Counted from the first letter of the stretch, positions 4,971 to 32,969 are shown. The stretch: DNA of 64,000 nt from Alphaproteobacteria bacterium (GCA_013289265.1 JABDAH010000005.1:6392-70391); one strand, 5' to 3'. Made by a program: numbers and translations. Notes: generated from the letters alone by a model not told the origin.

Positions 4971-5222
4971 ATGCGTTTAATTACCTATACACCTCTGGCT
5001 TTGAAGCAACTAGAGAAGCTAGATCGTATGTGGGCCATGCGAATTCGAGAAAAAATCAGGCAGTACGCAGATGATCCAGTCGGCCTCGCCAATCAAGTAA
5101 AGGCTTTAAAAGGAAGCAAAGGTTTACGGCTGCATGTTGGCGACTATAGAGTTATTTTTACGGCAGATGCCAAAGTTTTATTCATTATTAAAGTTGGCCA
5201 TCGTCGGGATATTTATGAATAG
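4971..5222 (+). CDS. RelE/ParE family toxin
   Basis: 83 aa basic protein; ALKQLEKL, LRLHVGDYRVIF, IIKVGHRRDIY. Confidence 0.9.
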   Translation: MRLITYTPLALKQLEKLDRMWAMRIREKIRQYADDPVGLANQVKALKGSKGLRLHVGDYRVIFTADAKVLFIIKVGHRRDIYE

Positions 5223-24301: not shown

Positions 24302-25660
24302 TTATTTCCCGAACCGGCTTTGATAGCGGCCATAGTCAGCGGCGGCCAGTTCAATGCGGATATGGGATTTGGTTTTGGTATCGCGCTTTTCGACGATTTT
24401 ACCGTGCCCATAGAGCCACGATAGAGCCGCGCCGTTTGTCAGCGGCACATCAATTTCATAGATCTTGGCTTTGGCGGTAAGGCGATCATCCAGCAGCTGG
24501 AGCAGGTCTGATACGCCTTCGCCGGTCAGGGCCGATATGCCGATGGTGCCGCCTGCCGCTTCTGGTCGGATGCCCTGTAGATCACTCGGCACATGCGTGG
24601 TGTCCCATGTTGTGCGCTGCGCATAATCTTTTAAATTATCGCGTTCTTCGTCGGGCAGCAGGTCGATCTTGTTCAGGACTTCTATCAGGCGCGTATCATC
24701 CTGACCGATACCCAGTTCGGCCAAGATATCCATCACCGACTCTTTCTGCGACCGTGTTTCCGGGTGCGACACATCGCGCACATGTAAAATAATATCAGCC
24801 AGCTGCACTTCTTCCAGCGTTGCGCGGAAAGCTTCCACCAGATGCGTCGGCAGGTCGGAAATAAATCCAACCGTGTCGGACAGAATAATCTCCCGTCCGC
24901 TCGGTAATTTCAGACCGCGCATGGTTGGGTCTAGCGTCGCGAACAACATGTTCTTTGCCAGAACATCGGCACCCGTCATACGGTTAAACAGGCTGGATTT
25001 CCCGGCGTTCGTATAACCTACCAGCGCCACGGTTGGATGTTCGGCCCTTACCCGTGCTTCACGTTGCAGGCCACGCGTACGCCGCACCTGCGCTAGATCT
25101 TCTTTTAGCCGTGAAATGCGTCCGGTGATAAGTCGTCTATCGATTTCCAATTGCGATTCACCGGGACCACCAAGAAATCCGAAGCCACCGCGCTGACGTT
25201 CCAAATGGGTCCATGATTTGACGAGGCGAGATTTTTGATAATCCAGCGCTGCCAGCTCAACCTGCAGTTGGCCTTCACGCGTGCGGGCCCGTTCGCCGAA
25301 GATTTCGAGAATAAGTCCGGTGCGGTCGATGACCTTGCACTTCCATTGTTCTTCTAGGTTACGCTGCTGAACCGGTGAGATTAAATGATCGACAATCGCA
25401 ACGACAATTTCTTGATCTATAATCAGCTGCTTAAAATTTTCTACCTGCCCCTTGCCAAGCAAAGTACCCGGCGCCGGTGTCGCGATATTCACAACCGTCG
25501 ATACAATCACATTCAGGTCGATCGCCTGCGCCAGGCTGACAGCTTCGGCCAGCATTGCATCAGAGTCGCGTTTGTCGCGTGCCGATTTTAAAATAGGCTT
25601 GATAACAATGGCGCTGTCGCCACGACGAATGCCGTCAATATCAGTATGAGCTGTTGTCAC
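24302..25660 (-). CDS. hflX: GTPase HflX
   Basis: GFLGGPGESQLE, GYTNAGKS, LFATLDPT, DTVGF, NKID. Confidence 0.97.
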   Translation of the reverse strand: MTTAHTDIDGIRRGDSAIVIKPILKSARDKRDSDAMLAEAVSLAQAIDLNVIVSTVVNIATPAPGTLLGKGQVENFKQLIIDQEIVVAIVDHLISPVQQRNLEEQWKCKVIDRTGLILEIFGERARTREGQLQVELAALDYQKSRLVKSWTHLERQRGGFGFLGGPGESQLEIDRRLITGRISRLKEDLAQVRRTRGLQREARVRAEHPTVALVGYTNAGKSSLFNRMTGADVLAKNMLFATLDPTMRGLKLPSGREIILSDTVGFISDLPTHLVEAFRATLEEVQLADIILHVRDVSHPETRSQKESVMDILAELGIGQDDTRLIEVLNKIDLLPDEERDNLKDYAQRTTWDTTHVPSDLQGIRPEAAGGTIGISALTGEGVSDLLQLLDDRLTAKAKIYEIDVPLTNGAALSWLYGHGKIVEKRDTKTKSHIRIELAAADYGRYQSRFGK

Positions 25661-25663
25661 GCG

Positions 25664-25912
25664 CTAGGCCTGCCCTGTGGGGGCTTCGAGGCCTTCGAAC
25701 ACCTGTACGGGATCGTTCGGCATAATTGTTGAGACAGCGTGCTTATAAATCAACTGCGAATGTGCGTCACGCCGTAACAGTAAGGAGAAAGCATCGAACC
25801 ATGTGACAATGCCTTGCAGCTTTACACCGTTCATCAGAAATACAGTTGTCGGCGTTTTATTGCTGCGCAAATAATTTAAAAATACATCCTGCAGGTTTTG
25901 CTTGTCGGTCAT
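25664..25912 (-). CDS. hfq: RNA chaperone Hfq
   Basis: [25 protein letters not shown]. Confidence 0.98.
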
Positions 25913-25954: not shown

Positions 25955-26605
25955 TTATTGTTGATAGCGATTATAAAGCAGCGTTTGCAGAGCCTTGCAA
26001 TCAGGAAAAAACAGCTCTACCCCCAGCATCTGGGCCATTTCCGGCTCGCCGATAAGCACCGGCGTACAGCCTGAATTACGGGCGCACTGGATATCAACCT
26101 CGCTGTCACCCACGAACCAAACGGATTTATCAGCTTTCATACCACCCAAATCGAGGGCGTAATCTGCGTGATCTTTGGCCGGTTTGTCGCGCGGCGCATC
26201 CTGGGCACCCGCTATACCCGCAAACAAATCCAGCCATTTCATTTTCTCAACTTCGATGCGCAGAAGATCGCCGCGCAAGTTACTGACGATAAAGAAGGGT
26301 ATCTTTTGCAGCTTCAGCCATTGCAGCAATTCACCGGCACCGTTGGTAGGGCCAATACGTTGTGACCGGACAAGGCCTACATTGCTGTAATAGTAATTGT
26401 AAGCTTCTTTCCAGCGGCTGCCGAACCATTCAGGAAAACTCTCGCGGGCGGCACGGGTGCAATGGATTTTAATGTCGTCCATTGACCATGCAGACAGGCC
26501 GAACTGCACTCTTGTCTGATTAATAGCGGCGGCAATCGCCGACCAGCCATCTACGAGCGTATTGTCCCAGTCAAAGATGACGGCTTTCGGAAAAGGCAGG
26601 CTCAC
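25955..26605 (-). CDS. HAD-family phosphatase (phosphoglycolate phosphatase-like)
   Basis: FDWDNTLVD, VSN, KP, VGDSEVD. Confidence 0.9.
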   Translation of the reverse strand: MSLPFPKAVIFDWDNTLVDGWSAIAAAINQTRVQFGLSAWSMDDIKIHCTRAARESFPEWFGSRWKEAYNYYYSNVGLVRSQRIGPTNGAGELLQWLKLQKIPFFIVSNLRGDLLRIEVEKMKWLDLFAGIAGAQDAPRDKPAKDHADYALDLGGMKADKSVWFVGDSEVDIQCARNSGCTPVLIGEPEMAQMLGVELFFPDCKALQTLLYNRYQQ

Positions 26606-26608
26606 AGC

Positions 26609-28051
26609 TTAATTGATTTTCTCGGAAACCACGGCGTGGTTTTCGTTGCTGCTGCCATGCACGCCAAGCAATTTCAGCTTGCGATGGAGCGCCGAGCGTT
26701 CCATGCCGATGAAATTGGCGGTGCGTGAAATATTACCACCAAAGCGTGTGACTTGCGCCAGAAGATATTCGCGTTCGAACATCTCACGCGCGTCGCGCAG
26801 CGGCAGGCCCATAATCTCGCCGCCCTTTTCCCAACGTAGAACGCTAGGTGTTGAGGACGTAATTTCCGGCGGCAGCATATCAGCGCGGATCGGATCCGTC
26901 GCCTCGCCCGTCGCCATGATCACGACCCACTCCATCGCATTGCGCAACTGACGCACATTGCCGGGCCATGCATAGGCTTGTAGCGCAGCCATGGCATCAT
27001 CGCCCAGACGACGCACAGCAATGCCCGAAACCTCAGAAGCGCGCGCAAGGAAATGTTCAACCAGCAAAGGAATATCTTCGCGACGGTCACAGAGAGCCGG
27101 GATTTTGATCGGCACGACACTGAGGCGATAATAGAGGTCCTGCCTTACGCGGCCAATCTGCACTTCGGCCTGCAGGTCACTGCTGCTGGAGGCAATAACA
27201 CGGACATCAACCTCAACCCGGGTATTACCACCGACGCGGGTGAAGACCTGTTCCTGCAAGACGCGGACGATTTTGCCCTGGGTTTCATTCGGCATATCGC
27301 TGATTTCGTCGAGATAGAGCGTGCCACCGTGAGCCTGTTCAAACACACCGACTTTGCGCGCACCGCCATTGATGCCGTATTCGGTGCCGAAGAGTTCAAT
27401 CTCCAGCTGTTCCGGCTGCATCGTCGCGCAGTTAATTGCAACGAACGAGCCATTGGCGCGGCGCGAATTTTTATGCAGAACGCGAGCGACGATTTCCTTG
27501 CCGACACCGGAAGGGCCTGAAATCATCACGCGGCTACCTGTCGGCGCGACGCGTTCGATGATCTGGCGGATCTGATTAATCTCCGGTGACTTGCCGATAA
27601 GATCATTTTCACCGCCGACGCGGGTTTTTAGTTCCAGATTTTCTCGCCTAAGACGGGCCGCATCCAGCGCATGCTGGACCTGCAGAATAAGACGGTCGGA
27701 CTTAAATGGTTTTTCTATGAAATCGTAAGCACCGATTTTAATCGCCTCTACGGCCGTCTGGATATTACCGTGACCACTGATCATGATCACCGGCGTGTCG
27801 GGATATTCCTTCCGGATATGTTTCAGGATTTCCATCCCGTCCATCGTACTGTTGTTCAGCCAGATGTCGAGAATAACTAAATTGGGTTTACGCAGCGCAA
27901 TAGCTTTAAGCGTTTCATCGGAATTACCGGCTTCGCGGACCATCAGGCCTTCGTCATTCAGGATACCTTTGATCAAAAGGCGGATATCCGTTTCATCATC
28001 GACAACGAGAATATCGTTGCTGAGACTTTTATCTTTGATTGATGACGCCAT
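26609..28051 (-). CDS. ntrX: response regulator NtrX
   Basis: Receiver (DD, LDIWL, ISGHG, KP), AAA+ domain lacking GAFTGA, HTH MERSALHRKLK; follows ntrY. Confidence 0.95.
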   Translation of the reverse strand: MASSIKDKSLSNDILVVDDETDIRLLIKGILNDEGLMVREAGNSDETLKAIALRKPNLVILDIWLNNSTMDGMEILKHIRKEYPDTPVIMISGHGNIQTAVEAIKIGAYDFIEKPFKSDRLILQVQHALDAARLRRENLELKTRVGGENDLIGKSPEINQIRQIIERVAPTGSRVMISGPSGVGKEIVARVLHKNSRRANGSFVAINCATMQPEQLEIELFGTEYGINGGARKVGVFEQAHGGTLYLDEISDMPNETQGKIVRVLQEQVFTRVGGNTRVEVDVRVIASSSSDLQAEVQIGRVRQDLYYRLSVVPIKIPALCDRREDIPLLVEHFLARASEVSGIAVRRLGDDAMAALQAYAWPGNVRQLRNAMEWVVIMATGEATDPIRADMLPPEITSSTPSVLRWEKGGEIMGLPLRDAREMFEREYLLAQVTRFGGNISRTANFIGMERSALHRKLKLLGVHGSSNENHAVVSEKIN

Positions 28052-28083: not shown

Positions 28084-30387
28084 TCAGGCTGTTTTTACAG
28101 CACTTACGGGAATCGACGGAACCGTTTTATCTTTAGCAGATTCGCTGCCTTCTAACAAAACATCTTCCGATGGAATATTGCTTTTCGGCTGCTTGGCCGG
28201 CCAGATCAAACTGACCACTGCGCCGCCGCCGGGCCCGTCAGCAAGTACCAATTCGCCGTGATGGTCTTCCATGATTTTCTTAACAATGGCAAGCCCTAAG
28301 CCGGTTCCCTTCATCCGGGTTGTAACATAGGGTTCTGTGAGGTTGTGACGGTCTTCTATCGGCAATCCCTTGCCGTTATCAGCAACGGACAGAGTTATAC
28401 GGCCATTCGCTACACTGAGACTAAGCTTAATCTCGCCCTGCAAGAGGTTGCCAGTAGCAGGAAGCGTACGTGCATCAATGGCTTCGGCTGCGTTCTTCAG
28501 AAGGTTAGTGAGCGCCTGCGCAACCTGCCGTCCGTCACATTCAGCAATACAGGGCTGATCCGGATAAATTTGCGTATAACGGATGTCACCGCGACTGGTG
28601 CCTTGCAGGAACTGGGTCTGGCGGCAAAGTTCGCGGAGCTCATGTTCCTTCATCACTGGCGTCGGCATACGCGCGAAGGCGGAGAATTCATCGACCATGC
28701 GGCCAATATCTTCGACATGTTTGACGATCGTATCGGTGCAGGTCGTGAATACTTCGGGGTCCGTGATAATTTCTTTTGCATATTTGCGCCGCAAGCGTTC
28801 CGCCGACAATTGGATTGGTGTGAGTGGATTTTTAATTTCATGAGCGATACGCCGCGCGACGTCAGCCCATGCGGCTTTACGTTGCGCCGATACAAGGTCG
28901 GTTACATCATCGAACGTCACGACATAGCCGCGAATTTCGGCACCAGTGGATTCCGACGATATACGCACCAGCAGAGTTCGCGCCGGTTGACCAGGACGGC
29001 GAATTTCGACCTGCCCATCGCTGAGTTTCGCTCCGCGTGGCATGGCATCCAGCACCGCCTGAATTTCGGGCGCTAAACTTGCCATCGACTGACCGTTCAT
29101 TTCGTCCGGTCTTTCAATATTAAAAAACCATGCAGCGGAAGCGTTCATCAGATTGATGCGGAATTCGGGATCTAGACCGATCACACCAGCCGATACCCCT
29201 GATAGAACCGCTTCGGTAAAACGGCGACGGAAATCCAGCTGTCGATTGGCCTCAACTAATTCGCTGCGCTGCCCTTCCAACTGGCTGGTCATACGGTTGA
29301 AGGCGCGGCTGAGGATATCCAGCTCGTCATCGCTCGCCTTATCCATTTCCGCCACGCGCGCGCTAAGATCACCGCCACGCACCCTGTCTGTAGCGCCGAT
29401 AAGTTCACTGATAGGACGCACCAGCCGCGTCGCAAAATTAAGGCCGAACCATACTGCGGCCAGCAGCAACAGCAACGCAACGACAATGAAGATGAGCGAG
29501 ATCGTCACCTGCAATCCAAATCGCCTGCCCTCCAATTGCTTATACTCATTGGCCGCTTTTTGGGTCGTGGCCATATGCGCCAGAACTTTGGGCTCGACAG
29601 GTCGCCCTACGAACAAATAGGTATCGACAAAATTATCGAGCCGCAGCAACGCACGTACACGGTCATCATTATCACTGACAATCAATACAACATCACCCTG
29701 CGCAGCATGCTGACGCATTTCATCGGTAATGGGCTCAAAGGTTAGCGCGAAAGTAAGACCTGACCGCGCCAGAATTTTGCCCGAACCATCGAACACAATA
29801 ACTTCCGTCAAATTACGCAAATATGCTTGTGCCGAGACGATCTGTGCAAAGCGGATAGGATCGCTAGAGAGAGTGCTGGCCTGCCGATTGAGGTCATTCG
29901 CCATTGCCAATGCGTCAGCGCGGAGCACCTGCTTATGCTCCTCCAAATATGCCTGCGCTACTTCCAGCGACTCATTTAGTGATGTGCGCACATGTTTTGA
30001 AAACCAGGCTTCGACGCCGAAATAGAAAAAGATCGCTGCAAACATCGCCACTAGCAAGGCGGGCGCCACGGCCAGCAGCGTAAAAACGCTGATGATACGT
30101 ACATGAAGACGGGACCCCGCCTGATTACGCCTTCGCCGAACCCAGATGGACAGAATGCGCTGCGCTACAATGGTTCCGAGCAGTACCAGAAATGTCAGAT
30201 CGAGCGATGATAAAATCATCACCGTCGTTGGGTCGTTGCCGAAAAACGGCGCGCGCGTTAGCGCAGCATACGTGGCAATGCCGGACATGATGGATGCCAC
30301 CACAAGCATAATAACCAGCTTGTGGCGCAGGCGCACCTTCGTTGCCCAAACAGTAAAGTAACGCCATAAATTGATTTTTCTAATCAT
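28084..30387 (-). CDS. ntrY: sensor histidine kinase NtrY
   Basis: TM segments, HAMP, PAS, AWADVARRIAHEIKNPLTPIQLSAERL, GTGLGL; start ATG 30387. Confidence 0.95.
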   Translation of the reverse strand: MIRKINLWRYFTVWATKVRLRHKLVIMLVVASIMSGIATYAALTRAPFFGNDPTTVMILSSLDLTFLVLLGTIVAQRILSIWVRRRRNQAGSRLHVRIISVFTLLAVAPALLVAMFAAIFFYFGVEAWFSKHVRTSLNESLEVAQAYLEEHKQVLRADALAMANDLNRQASTLSSDPIRFAQIVSAQAYLRNLTEVIVFDGSGKILARSGLTFALTFEPITDEMRQHAAQGDVVLIVSDNDDRVRALLRLDNFVDTYLFVGRPVEPKVLAHMATTQKAANEYKQLEGRRFGLQVTISLIFIVVALLLLLAAVWFGLNFATRLVRPISELIGATDRVRGGDLSARVAEMDKASDDELDILSRAFNRMTSQLEGQRSELVEANRQLDFRRRFTEAVLSGVSAGVIGLDPEFRINLMNASAAWFFNIERPDEMNGQSMASLAPEIQAVLDAMPRGAKLSDGQVEIRRPGQPARTLLVRISSESTGAEIRGYVVTFDDVTDLVSAQRKAAWADVARRIAHEIKNPLTPIQLSAERLRRKYAKEIITDPEVFTTCTDTIVKHVEDIGRMVDEFSAFARMPTPVMKEHELRELCRQTQFLQGTSRGDIRYTQIYPDQPCIAECDGRQVAQALTNLLKNAAEAIDARTLPATGNLLQGEIKLSLSVANGRITLSVADNGKGLPIEDRHNLTEPYVTTRMKGTGLGLAIVKKIMEDHHGELVLADGPGGGAVVSLIWPAKQPKSNIPSEDVLLEGSESAKDKTVPSIPVSAVKTA

Positions 30388-30667
30388 AGCGCGCACCTTT
30401 GTGGCGGGCGCTACGTCCGGCCGGCAAACCAAGTTCGCGGATTTTCTTACGTAAGGTGTTGCGGTTTAAGCCTAGCAGCGCTGCCGCGCGGAGTTGATTA
30501 CCGCGACATTCGTCCAAAGTTATCGTCAGCAAAGGCCGTTCAATTTCCTGCAGCACACGGTCATAAAGGCCGGAGGCTGGCAAGTCGCTTTCATGCGCCG
30601 CAAAATAATCACGCAAATGGCGTTCGATGGTGGCGGCAAGACCTGCGCCGTTTTGGCGCTCGCTCAC
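30380..30667 (-). CDS. stand-alone Fis-like protein (equivalent to the NtrC C-terminal domain)
   Basis: LYDRVLQEIERPLL...RGNQLRAAALLGLNRNTLRKK; GTG start overlaps the dusB stop (GTGA) with GGAG upstream; 3' end overlaps the ntrY start. Confidence 0.88.
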   Translation of the reverse strand: MSERQNGAGLAATIERHLRDYFAAHESDLPASGLYDRVLQEIERPLLTITLDECRGNQLRAAALLGLNRNTLRKKIRELGLPAGRSARHKGARYD

Positions 30668-31698
30668 GCAGCTTTCTCCAGCAGTGGGAAGAAGAAGCCG
30701 TTGATCAGTTCACGTACCTTTGAGGCGTCATCGACATTATTCACAGCATCGCGGAACTCGGAAGATTTTGGCAGACCCTTGCTGTACCAGCCGATATGTT
30801 TGCGGGCAATGCGCAGGCCTGCATGCGATCCGTAATGTTCCAGCATGGATTCCAGATGCTCAATCACCGTCTCGACCTGATGCTGCAAACTCGGCGCTTT
30901 CGGAATAACACCCGTGCGCAGGTAGTCCATCACCTGCTGAATGAACCAGGGTCGGCCATAAGCACCGCGGCCAATCATCACGCCGTCGGCGCCTGACATT
31001 TCCAGCGCCTTGATGACATCGGGGAAATCATTGATATCGCCGTTTGCGATTACCGGAATAGTTACGGCATTTTTCACGTTGCGGATAAAGGACCAATCCG
31101 CCTGCCCTTCATAAAACTGGCAGCGCGTGCGACCATGAACGGTAACCATTTTGATGCCGCATTCTTCGGCAATTTTTGCAAGGCGCGGGGCATTCAAATT
31201 TTCATGGTTCCATCCCATGCGCATTTTCAGCGTCACCGGAACCTTCACCGCCTTAACGGTGGCTTCCAGAATTTTTGCGGCATGAACCTCATCACGCATA
31301 AGGCTGGAGCCCGCATGGCCGTTGACCACCTTCTTCACTGGGCAACCGAAATTGATATCGATAATATGCGCGCCGCGATCTTCGTTCAGCTTGGCCGCTT
31401 CACCCATGACTTCAGGCTCACACCCCGCTAACTGCACTGCCATCGGGTTCTCGGCTTCGGAACGCTGGATCATCTGCATCGTCTTCCGGCATTCGCGCAC
31501 CATCGCCTGGCTGGCGATCATCTCCGACACCACAAGGCTCGCGCCGTGCTTCTTCACAAGACGGCGGAACGGCATATCCGTCACGCCAGACATAGGCGCA
31601 AGAATAACAGGAGCCTCAATCGTAATCGGGCCGATCTGGATCGGTTTAAGCGGCCTTACCGCAGGCGGCTGCGCTGATGGTTCTTCAAAATCAAGCAT
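30664..31698 (-). CDS. dusB: tRNA-dihydrouridine synthase B (NifR3)
   Basis: LAPMSGVTD, DINFGCP, TVHGRTR, ANGDI, GVMIGR, RKHIGWY. Confidence 0.97.
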   Translation of the reverse strand: MLDFEEPSAQPPAVRPLKPIQIGPITIEAPVILAPMSGVTDMPFRRLVKKHGASLVVSEMIASQAMVRECRKTMQMIQRSEAENPMAVQLAGCEPEVMGEAAKLNEDRGAHIIDINFGCPVKKVVNGHAGSSLMRDEVHAAKILEATVKAVKVPVTLKMRMGWNHENLNAPRLAKIAEECGIKMVTVHGRTRCQFYEGQADWSFIRNVKNAVTIPVIANGDINDFPDVIKALEMSGADGVMIGRGAYGRPWFIQQVMDYLRTGVIPKAPSLQHQVETVIEHLESMLEHYGSHAGLRIARKHIGWYSKGLPKSSEFRDAVNNVDDASKVRELINGFFFPLLEKAA

Positions 31699-31711
31699 GC
31701 TGAGCTTTTAG

Positions 31712-31736
31712 CATTTGCCTAAAAAATAGGCAAATG
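31712..31736. promoter_or_regulatory. Fis/NtrC-type binding palindrome in the dusB/ispDF divergent promoter
   Basis: CATTTGCCTA-AAAAA-TAGGCAAATG; core 31717-31731 fits GNNYRNNWNNYRNNC. Confidence 0.7.
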
Positions 31737-31811
31737 TGAAAATATGAAGCTAAAGGCTTGCTTTGTTTACCTTGGACGTTAGGTTCAGCACCCTAAAGCT
31801 AAGGATAACTG

Positions 31812-32969
31812 ATGACCCAATGCACAGCCCTGATCGTCGCCGCTGGTTCTGGCCAGCGTTTTGGCGGAACGATCCCAAAACAGTATCACGAGCTTGGCGG
31901 GATGCCGATCCTGCGCCGTAGCGTTCTGGCTTTCCTGAACCACCCGCATATTGACGCGGTGCAAGTGGTTATCAGCCCGGCACATCGCGATATGTATGAC
32001 AAAGCCACAGCCGACCTTGGGCTGCCGGAACCTATCATCGGCGGCGCGACACGGCAGGATTCCGTACGGTTGGGTCTGGAAGCGCTGGAGAAAACCAATA
32101 AGCCAAAACTTGTGATGATCCATGACGCGGCGCGGCCTCTGATCGACGCCGCCACCATCACCAACGTGCGCAAAGCCTTGGACAAGGATGTCGGCGCGAT
32201 TGCGGCGAAGCCTCTGGTCGATACGTTGAAGCGCGGCAATGGCATCAATATCGAAACCACCATTGACCGCAATAATCTTTGGCAAGCGCATACGCCACAG
32301 GCCTTCCATTTTGATGCTATTCTGGCGGCGCACCGCGCTACTATAGGCGCGCAGATGACGGATGATGCCGCCGTCGCCGAAAAAGCAGGCATGAATGTAA
32401 CTTTGGTACTCTCAAACCCGGACAATATGAAAATCACCAATCCTGACGATCTTGACCGCGCTGCGCGGTTGCTTGGCCACAATTTTAGCGATATTCGGAC
32501 CGGCATGGGCTTTGATGTGCATCGCCTGATCCCCGGCGATAAAATCTTTTTATGCGGCGTGTCCATTCCGCACAACCGCATGCTGGAAGGTCATTCCGAC
32601 GCCGATGTCGGCCTGCATGCCTTATGCGATGCAATTTTGGGCGCGATGAGCGAAGGCGATATTGGCAAGCATTTCCCACCGTCAGACCCCCAATGGAAGG
32701 GTAAGGACAGCGCCCATTTTGTCCGGCATATCGTCGGCATGGTGTCGGAGCGCGGCGGTTTTATCTCCCACGTCGATATTACAATGATGTGTGAAAATCC
32801 GCGTATCGGCCCGCATCGCGATGCCATGGTCGCCCGCGTCGCCGAACTTCTGGAAGTCACCCCTGACCGCGTTAGCGTGAAGGCTACAACTACTGAGCGC
32901 CTTGGCTTCACCGGTCGCGAAGAAGGCATCGCCGCGCAGGCGGTGGCTACGTTGCGGTTTCCGGGATAA
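31812..32969 (+). CDS. ispDF: bifunctional IspD/IspF
   Basis: AAGSGQRFG, PKQY, IHDAARP, GFDVH, GHSDADV, KATTTE. Confidence 0.97.
   Translation: MTQCTALIVAAGSGQRFGGTIPKQYHELGGMPILRRSVLAFLNHPHIDAVQVVISPAHRDMYDKATADLGLPEPIIGGATRQDSVRLGLEALEKTNKPKLVMIHDAARPLIDAATITNVRKALDKDVGAIAAKPLVDTLKRGNGINIETTIDRNNLWQAHTPQAFHFDAILAAHRATIGAQMTDDAAVAEKAGMNVTLVLSNPDNMKITNPDDLDRAARLLGHNFSDIRTGMGFDVHRLIPGDKIFLCGVSIPHNRMLEGHSDADVGLHALCDAILGAMSEGDIGKHFPPSDPQWKGKDSAHFVRHIVGMVSERGGFISHVDITMMCENPRIGPHRDAMVARVAELLEVTPDRVSVKATTTERLGFTGREEGIAAQAVATLRFPG

Follow-up and report, generated by a model that had tools for sequence, protein, structure and literature searches.

For Fis, one of the textbook global regulators, an origin from the C-terminal domain of the enhancer-binding protein NtrC was proposed from very few genomes. 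What becomes of the DNA-binding domain (DBD) of an enhancer-binding protein once it has been freed, whether it keeps its old operator, becomes an autorepressor or acts globally, is the question raised by a locus of an alphaproteobacterial genome (Alphaproteobacteria bacterium, GCA_013289265.1 JABDAH010000005.1:6392-70391; this stretch of 64,000 nucleotides is called the window below). Directly behind dusB and in front of ntrY the window contains an open reading frame (ORF) of 95 amino acids, which we named fisL, with FisL for its product. We found that FisL is the C-terminal HTH_8 domain of NtrC by itself, and that fisL is a working gene under purifying selection. The explanation that we prefer, with a probability of roughly 0.6, is that FisL is an NtrC remnant acting as a dimeric constitutive autorepressor at an inherited operator, and that its origin was separate from that of the Fis proteins of Beta- and Gammaproteobacteria. 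The clade that carries fisL can be regarded as a natural replicate of the Fis-forming event, still in the ancestral gene context; its close outgroups keep the full operon, and a partly reduced form exists in another lineage.

A stand-alone NtrC C-terminal domain between dusB and ntrY

The family of FisL was determined from profile searches and from the position of its gene. The Pfam scan of FisL detected HTH_8 (PF02954) alone, with 51 bits at residues 39-78 (cut-off 22). The match to the ntrC model TIGR01818 reached 57.7 bits (cut-off 558.6) and covered only positions 394-463 of 463. Two NCBIfam models of Fis matched below their cut-offs, NF001659/PRK00430 (Fis) with 68.3 bits against 99 (residues 8-81 on model positions 25-97 of 98) and NF002517/PRK01905 (short Fis) with 68.6 bits against 122 (residues 11-81 on model positions 7-76 of 77). 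A scan with one genome per species gave 80 loci, nearly all of them from alphaproteobacteria with the gene order dusB-ntrB-ntrC-ntrY-ntrX, in which the match is formed by the last ~85 residues of a frame of 480-600 amino acids. FisL is 52-70% identical to these NtrC C-termini and its gene occupies the same genomic position. What distinguishes it from the NtrC of alphaproteobacteria such as Caulobacter is that it lacks the receiver, the AAA+ domain and an NtrB partner, and therefore has no phosphorylation input and no ATP-driven remodelling of sigma-54 or sigma-70 complexes.

In the window dusB is the first gene of the operon and fisL the second cistron, in the order dusB-fisL-ntrY-ntrX. The GTG start of fisL (30667-30665) overlaps the TGA stop of dusB (30666-30664) in a GTGA junction, and this leaves no room for ntrB; the same is true of relatives. 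At the other end, the TAG stop of fisL (30382-30380) lies in an 8-nt overlap with the ATG of ntrY. No coding sequence for ntrB, a receiver or an AAA+ domain was found between dusB and ntrY in the window. An earlier reading of this DNA, the initial annotation, had described the reduction of NtrBC, within its own locus, to a Fis-like protein that stands alone, encoded by a 95-aa ORF with a ribosome-binding site of its own, coupled to dusB by GTGA and overlapping the start of ntrY. That description was upheld in each of these points, including the loss of ntrB and of the NtrC receiver and AAA+ parts, and it gained from the identity to the NtrC C-terminus of the same position and from the selection analysis given below.

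The initial annotation had also aligned the ORF by eye with the four helices of Fis, and had remarked on the missing long N-terminal arm and on a basic tail; all three observations agreed with our results. The PDB sequence search with FisL found Fis of Pseudomonas (E=6.6e-15) and of Escherichia coli (E=1e-13), and more weakly the DNA-binding domain of Salmonella NtrC (E=3e-4). In the alignment with E. coli Fis, query residues 10-81 correspond to Fis 27-97. The region of the Fis N-terminal arm (~26 residues), which is needed for invertase activation, has no counterpart in FisL, where ~9 variable residues stand in front of helix A, and helix D is followed by ~14 residues that form a basic tail. 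In structure prediction FisL took the four-helix fold of Fis, in which the helix-turn-helix is C-terminal: the AlphaFold2 model, made with 45 homologues, had a pLDDT of 80.1 and helices at 4-26, 34-53, 58-65 and 69-79. In a Foldseek search with this model the 31 best matches listed were all Fis chains (E. coli, P. aeruginosa; TM 0.57-0.74, TMt 0.58-0.74, ~40% identity), and the DNA-binding domains of NtrC4 and NtrC1 ranked after them. FisL is probably a homodimer, by homology to Fis and to NtrC DNA-binding domains, both of which were solved as dimers; the two-copy complex prediction for FisL (score 0.38, mark 0.42) carries no weight either way.

Among the 45 homologues of FisL 32 columns are invariant, including N57, Q58, N68, R69, N70, T71, L72, R73 and K75, which align with N73, Q74, N84, R85, G86, T87, L88, R89 and K91 of Fis. 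FisL K74, aligned to Fis Lys90, is conserved in at least 90% of the homologues. In Fis, Asn73, Gln74, Thr87, Arg89 and Lys90 are DNA-contact residues. For two further residues the contacts have been described: Arg85 touches the conserved guanines at positions +/-7, and Asn84 a purine at +/-4 (PMC4784862).

The gene is conserved among relatives of the host. We searched 40 of them, with genomes of ~2 Mb, from three families of one order: the family of the host (its own family) and two others, f2 and f3. A short open frame with E <= 1e-15 and 50-86% identity to FisL was present in 35 of the 40. The first 12 relative loci all had ntrY beside fisL and a DusB-coding sequence opposite, and 12 further loci, eight of them from f2 and f3, showed the same arrangement except for L197, where no dusB match lay within the stretch (dusB is cut by the contig end in L016, L192 and L194). 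The repetition of this arrangement in relatives excludes a misassembly at the junction. For 12 orthologues of the host's order the median pairwise ratio of nonsynonymous to synonymous substitutions (dN/dS) was 0.11, from the 23 unsaturated of 66 pairs, with fisL synonymous sites near saturation; the same measure gave 0.13 for dusB and 0.14 for ntrY.

These data bear on the possibility that fisL is a decaying remnant, open by chance or only coupling the translation of dusB and ntrY. The overlap of fisL with both neighbours and its absence from some relatives are compatible with such a remnant, but the low dN/dS, the invariant columns, the conservation in three families and three sister lineages (see below) and the 1296 clusters of 52-167 amino acids that match FisL in the protein collection (E<=1e-3) speak against it. 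The selection analysis already contradicts neutral evolution of a remnant, and we consider this explanation highly improbable.

The named clusters among these 1296 are labelled 'helix-turn-helix domain-containing protein' or 'GlnG', and the latter label, when put on fisL, misleads the metabolic reconstruction of these predators. The search of protein representatives gave 4730 matches at E<=0.001, many of which are contig-end fragments, so that their lengths are unusable for counting stand-alone forms. Three of the representatives (P0172, P0178 and P0228; 196-199 amino acids) match FisL in two separate stretches and may have tandem Fis-like domains. In the literature searched we found no alphaproteobacterial protein of this stand-alone, Fis-like kind described, and the search for Micavibrio together with Fis found no paper. 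As far as these searches reach, FisL is a real, conserved and apparently undescribed gene family.

The host genome is a metagenome-assembled genome (MAG) of 1.49 Mb in 61 contigs with an estimated completeness of 63.6%, and the absence of ntrBC therefore rests on near-complete relatives. No NtrC-type DNA-binding domain was found elsewhere in the 40 relatives, where the next best matches had 23-33 bits. The host assembly contains rpoN and two enhancer-binding proteins, NtrX and, in the flagellar cluster, FlbD; the relatives usually have 2-3 (range 0-5). A third enhancer-binding protein of relatives was considered as a relocated NtrC and rejected, being similar to LuxO and PEP-CTERM regulators, without an NtrC-type DBD motif and without an ntrB neighbour. 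The PII protein was found in 0/24 genomes of the own family, in 0/8 of f3 and in 7/8 of f2, whereas 25 of the 27 high-quality genomes have GlnA. The signalling side of nitrogen control has therefore largely been lost, while the DNA-binding module persists. The host has one weak PII-family match, the sole one in its family (contig C1, 18048-18356, 49 bits), which lies outside the window.

An operator-like dyad upstream of dusB

The intergenic region of 113 bp that is common to dusB and the divergent ispDF contains a perfect palindrome (Table 1). Its core in the form TGCCTA-N5-TAGGCA was present in 9 of 12 dusB upstream regions of the own family; two of the others have a degenerate form and one, L024, has none. 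The exact dyad was also observed upstream of dusB in two sister lineages, L154 and L156, and in family f3 the dusB dyads read TGCACA-AATTT-TGTGCA, TGCATA-AATTT-TATGCA or a mixed form of the two. The exact pattern with an A/T centre occurred at 25 places in 22 of 41 genomes, and the reversed control pattern at one. Judged by its coordinates and flanking genes, the place is the promoter of the dusB operon in 17 of these 25 cases. In the host genome two exact dyads were detected versus 0.09 expected.

The same class of dyad is found where NtrC is complete. Of 57 alphaproteobacterial loci that encode full NtrBC, 13 have a dyad of the type GCCYAR-N3-YTRGGC beside the dusB start, for example GCCCAATAAATAGGC and GCCTAATTCATAGGC, and the locus L150, which encodes a beta-type short Fis, has GCCTAAAAAATAGGC 14 nt upstream of the predicted dusB start, with the same 15-bp core as in the window. 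The nifR3-ntrBC operon of Azospirillum is reportedly negatively regulated, according to the title of one study. The dyad at dusB agrees in its TGC-N11-GCA geometry with the NtrC consensus of enteric bacteria, TGCACCA-N3-TGGTGCA (PMC8743547). It also fits the high-affinity Fis site, which is described as a 15-bp core bounded by G and C (+/-7), with T/A at +/-8, a Y-R step at +/-3-4 and an A/T centre (PMC4784862). The NtrC of Caulobacter is a repressor of its own operon, with a peak of chromatin immunoprecipitation at CCNA_01813-ntrB, and its motif was reported as 'significantly related' to that of Fis (PMC10274813). The simplest reading of these similarities would be that FisL kept the autoregulatory operator of NtrC.

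From these observations we propose the following course of events. An ancestor of the host's order, to which Micavibrio belongs, and of three sister lineages would have deleted ntrB together with the receiver and AAA+ parts of ntrC, and the remaining DNA-binding and dimerisation domain would be translated as the second cistron of the dusB-fisL-ntrY-ntrX operon. FisL would form a dimer of the Fis/NtrC type and bind the 17-bp sequence TGCCTA-W5-TAGGCA just upstream of dusB, presumably the site of autorepression by full-length NtrC in other alphaproteobacteria. Having lost the receiver and the ATPase, FisL would be unable to sense NtrB/PII or to activate sigma-54 promoters, and would serve as a signal-independent, concentration-dependent autorepressor that sets the levels of DusB and of NtrY/NtrX, and it may bend or occupy a few other sites.

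Several observations weigh against this proposal. The exact dyad was not found upstream of dusB in L024, L157 and L061 (Haematospirillum), and in family f2 only a weak version was present at dusB and the exact form was missing, though fisL is kept in all these cases. A simple scan of 31600-31900 for sigma-70 promoters and terminators found none, and a TGC-N11-GCA dyad was not found within 400 bp upstream of the host glnA. The gene fisL itself was not found in five of the 40 relatives (G003, G010, G016, G023 and G030); G010, G016, G023 and G030 are 97-100% complete and possess NtrX-type genes, which makes fisL dispensable in some lineages, where it seems to have been lost again. As RNA in a dusB leader, the dyad would fold into a hairpin of 10 bp (-21.6 kcal/mol, z -3.7), and the symmetric changes in its two arms fit an RNA stem and a dimer site alike. 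Finally, the operon encodes a second HTH_8 domain, that of NtrX, and the dyad could be bound by NtrX instead.

The last two points could mean that the palindrome is an RNA hairpin of the dusB leader, controlling stability or translation, or else an operator of NtrX, and that FisL acts elsewhere or pairs with the NtrX DNA-binding domain. We consider this unlikely. The predicted hairpin is stable, none of 200 shuffles folding as well, and it would stand beside the ribosome-binding site, 17 nt from the dusB ATG. On the other hand, conservation across the order and further concerns the half-site sequence, beyond mere pairing, and the central 5 bp are A/T in every case, which is a requirement of Fis-type sites (PMC4784862). 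Autoregulation of ntrY promoters by NtrX was reported for Brucella and Sinorhizobium, but the NtrX motifs given there, CAA-N3-5-TTG and GCA-N9-TGC, do not fit TGC-N11-GCA (PMC9223101). Neither a leader hairpin nor an NtrX operator accounts well for the eight exact copies away from dusB (in front of a PagL-like gene in three genomes, on a phage-like contig and at other places) or for the related dyads at dusB in organisms where NtrC is known or expected to autoregulate.

The number of sites in the genome is relevant to a different role, which the initial annotation had named beside that of a repressor: FisL could chiefly be a global nucleoid-associated protein, an analogue of Fis, abundant and with many degenerate A/T-rich sites, that shapes DNA topology and growth-phase expression and for which the dusB dyad is merely the strongest site. 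Such a role is compatible with autoregulation, since E. coli Fis does both. It draws on the Fis-like fold at ~40% identity with all aligned Fis DNA-contact residues kept, on the gene position downstream of dusB, as for fis in 50 of 56 beta/gamma loci, and on the fit of the dyad to the Fis site and the resemblance of the Caulobacter NtrC motif to that of Fis. However, the 1.49-Mb assembly contained only two exact sites and two sites with one mismatch, the latter at chance (3.2 expected), the apparent lack of fisL in 5/40 relatives would be unusual for a central nucleoid protein, and the Fis N-terminal arm is missing. We regard a chiefly global role as doubtful; of the two functions that had been left side by side, the conserved operator-like dyad at the gene's own promoter points to the repressor.

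The eight exact sites outside dusB in relatives had no gene in common. In three genomes of one genus of f2 (L202, L203 and L204), in which the dusB promoter has no exact dyad, an exact copy lies at 1501-1517, at the end of an aminopeptidase-N-like gene and 62-78 nt upstream of a PagL-like gene (lipid A deacylase family). The second exact copy of the host is on contig C38 (~2752-2768, outside the window), a phage-like contig of 5.8 kb, and agrees with the dusB site in 21 bases. The copy is situated in the gap directly upstream of a 101-aa ORF, which is followed by a 505-aa ORF whose first 70 residues matched the large subunit of a phage terminase (phrog_979, E=1.7e-10). This copy could be a phage promoter that exploits host FisL, or the core of an attachment site.

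Origin of FisL and its relation to beta/gamma Fis

The phylogenetic position of the stand-alone forms was examined in a concatenated DusB+NtrY+NtrX tree (FastTree, 85 rows, 1483 columns). The 12 rows of the host's order formed a clade (support 100), which L154, L156 and L157 joined (99). With the three sister lineages grouped in this manner one old deletion suffices for all, and the deletion in the order and its sisters was probably old and single. A MAG of Micavibrio aeruginosavorus (L024) nested within the host's own family, which makes the host organism a relative of the predatory Micavibrio.

Stand-alone forms beyond the host's order were seen in the species scan and, among the matches listed, in a survey of 401 genomes of the class (309 matching rows, of which 150 were listed). 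Haematospirillum sp. H4485 (L061) has a stand-alone NtrC C-terminal gene (match 5001-5219) in the order dusB-fisL-ntrY-ntrX and was sister to a genome with full NtrC (100), and the deletion in Haematospirillum was therefore a second, separate event. A partial reduction was detected in the MAG Proteobacteria bacterium B41T1L10 (L077, 1975-2997), where a 340-aa protein is encoded between dusB and ntrY-ntrX. This cluster resembles that of the window in having no ntrB. It differs in that its protein keeps a weak sigma-54 AAA+ match (59 bits), the lid domain and HTH_8, only the receiver being lost, and in its lineage, which adjoins a Sphingomonadales row (98). G084 is a recent truncation. Three other candidates were rejected: L042 is cut by the contig end, L158 is a frame-shifted NtrC, and L155, considered as a separate origin, is a recent truncation whose sister genome has full NtrC.

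The initial annotation had proposed either a relative of the donor lineage of Fis or an independent origin. In the former case the clade would be, or be close to, the donor of the beta/gamma dusB-fis pair, with one deletion, a later horizontal transfer, and FisL and Fis as orthologues. The gene order is the same, and a 1998 study by Morett and Bork is said, by its title, to propose that Fis arose by horizontal transfer from NtrC. For comparison we used 56 beta/gamma loci (L098-L153), with dusB upstream of fis in 50, and five loci with dusB-ntrB-ntrC from other classes of the phylum. The existence of dusB-ntrB-ntrC outside Alphaproteobacteria (L182-L186 with L159-L163) is an observation in its own right.

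The DNA-binding domains and DusB of these non-alphaproteobacterial loci grouped with beta/gamma Fis and its DusB. In the DusB tree (70 rows) all 38 alphaproteobacterial rows were on one side of a branch (97), and beta/gamma DusB (99) grouped with the non-alphaproteobacterial classes that have dusB-ntrB-ntrC. In the tree of DusB together with the DBD, the alphaproteobacterial group had a support of 100 and the beta/gamma group one of 99. When the FisL clade was constrained to join Fis, the cost in log-likelihood (lnL) was 58.7 for DusB+DBD, with a p-value of 0.025 in the approximately unbiased (AU) test, and 36.3 for DusB alone (p-AU 0.156). With the DBD of 91 columns the constraint gave a tree that exceeded the quick free one by 15.6 lnL (p-AU 0.69). 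A joint clade with Fis is thus not rejected on DusB or on the DBD. In the quick tree of the DBD, the other stand-alone lineages were scattered and Fis was joined to non-alphaproteobacterial NtrC (97). Since the constrained DBD tree outscored the free one, the quick DBD search was poor, and the weight lies on DusB, the concatenations and an indel. The phylogenies were 'quick' or FastTree searches and the tested group was chosen after the first DBD tree; as evidence on common descent with Fis the AU tests are weak.

The indel, which does not depend on the likelihoods, is in the loop between helices A and B, where alphaproteobacterial NtrC and FisL have one residue more than Fis, non-alphaproteobacterial NtrC and GlnG. 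FisL is 36-56% identical to Fis versus 52-70% to alphaproteobacterial NtrC domains. We hold with moderate confidence that FisL and beta/gamma Fis would be parallel products of the same type of deletion, which happened separately in the same gene context, and likewise with moderate confidence that the dusB-ntrBC linkage predates Alphaproteobacteria. The non-alphaproteobacterial dusB-ntrB-ntrC loci, and their grouping with beta/gamma DusB and Fis, weaken the case for a transfer from Alphaproteobacteria. A donor role of the FisL clade appears improbable, and the alternative of an independent origin is favoured by the DusB tree, the DusB+DBD tree and the indel, if not decisively.

The comparison with known systems leads to similar groupings. 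FisL resembles the Fis of E. coli and other Gammaproteobacteria (98 aa; PDB 1ETY, 3IV5) as a small stand-alone HTH_8 protein directly behind dusB, in its fold model and aligned contact residues, and in an operon that carries a candidate site fitting the high-affinity description. It differs in lacking the first ~26 residues of Fis, in scoring below both Fis cut-offs, in the basic C-terminal tail, in having ntrY-ntrX next, and in grouping with alphaproteobacterial NtrC domains, with which it shares the one-residue indel. The short Fis of Betaproteobacteria-type genomes (PRK01905, 77 aa) resembles FisL in length, in its lack of the long N-terminal arm and in the position of its gene behind dusB; its identity to FisL is 36-45%, and it groups with gamma Fis, not with FisL.

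A more far-reaching possibility, which we offer tentatively, is that Fis-like proteins originated at least two and perhaps at least three times through one type of deletion in an ancestral proteobacterial dusB-ntrB-ntrC operon: in the beta/gamma ancestor, with vertical inheritance and no transfer from an alphaproteobacterium, in the Micavibrio clade and in Haematospirillum. FisL might then by now have become an architectural regulator of the genuine Fis type in predatory bacteria with small genomes, anchored to the NtrC operator and open to exploitation by phages.

Features of the locus

The gene order ispDF<>dusB-ORF-ntrY-ntrX-HAD-hfq-hflX that had been given for the window agreed with the ORFs and family matches, hfq and hflX being recognised by eye (Table 1).

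Table 1. Features of the fisL locus in the window, with positions counted from its first letter
Feature	Position	Strand	Remarks
hflX	24302-25660	-	recognised by eye only
hfq	25664-25912	-	recognised by eye only
HAD hydrolase	25955-26605	-	
ntrX, response regulator (REC + AAA+ + HTH_8)	26609-28051	-	NF051870 NtrX, 700.4 bits (cut-off 600)
ntrY, sensor kinase	28084-30387	-	Pfam NtrY_N, HAMP, PAS, HisKA, HATPase_c
fisL, stand-alone NtrC C-terminal (HTH_8, Fis-like) predicted DNA-binding protein, 95 aa	30380-30667	-	
GGAG ribosome-binding site, within the dusB 3' end	30676-30679	-	8 nt upstream of the fisL GTG; read from the sequence
dusB (nifR3), tRNA dihydrouridine synthase B	30664-31698	-	TIGR00737, 425.6 bits (cut-off 293.3); Pfam Dus, 341 bits
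Perfect 25-bp palindrome CATTTGCCTA-AAAAA-TAGGCAAATG, candidate FisL (ex-NtrC) operator	31713-31737	no strand	
Palindrome core 17-mer TGCCTAAAAAATAGGCA	31716-31732		17 nt upstream of the dusB ATG
ispDF, divergent	31812-32969	+	orthologous ORF in L200 has IspD + YgbB domains

The listed ORF of ntrY reaches 30432 with a TTG start. The ATG at 30387 is the likelier start and fits the relatives, whose matches begin at listed residues 5-24. Among 28 loci of relatives in which the dusB stop was found, fisL overlaps the dusB stop by 4 nt in 11 and the ntrY start by the same length in 12, counts that rest on a crude picking of start codons. A spacer of 137-293 nt separates dusB from fisL in seven loci (L007, L011, L016, L024, L195, L192 and L061), one of which belongs to the genus of the window.

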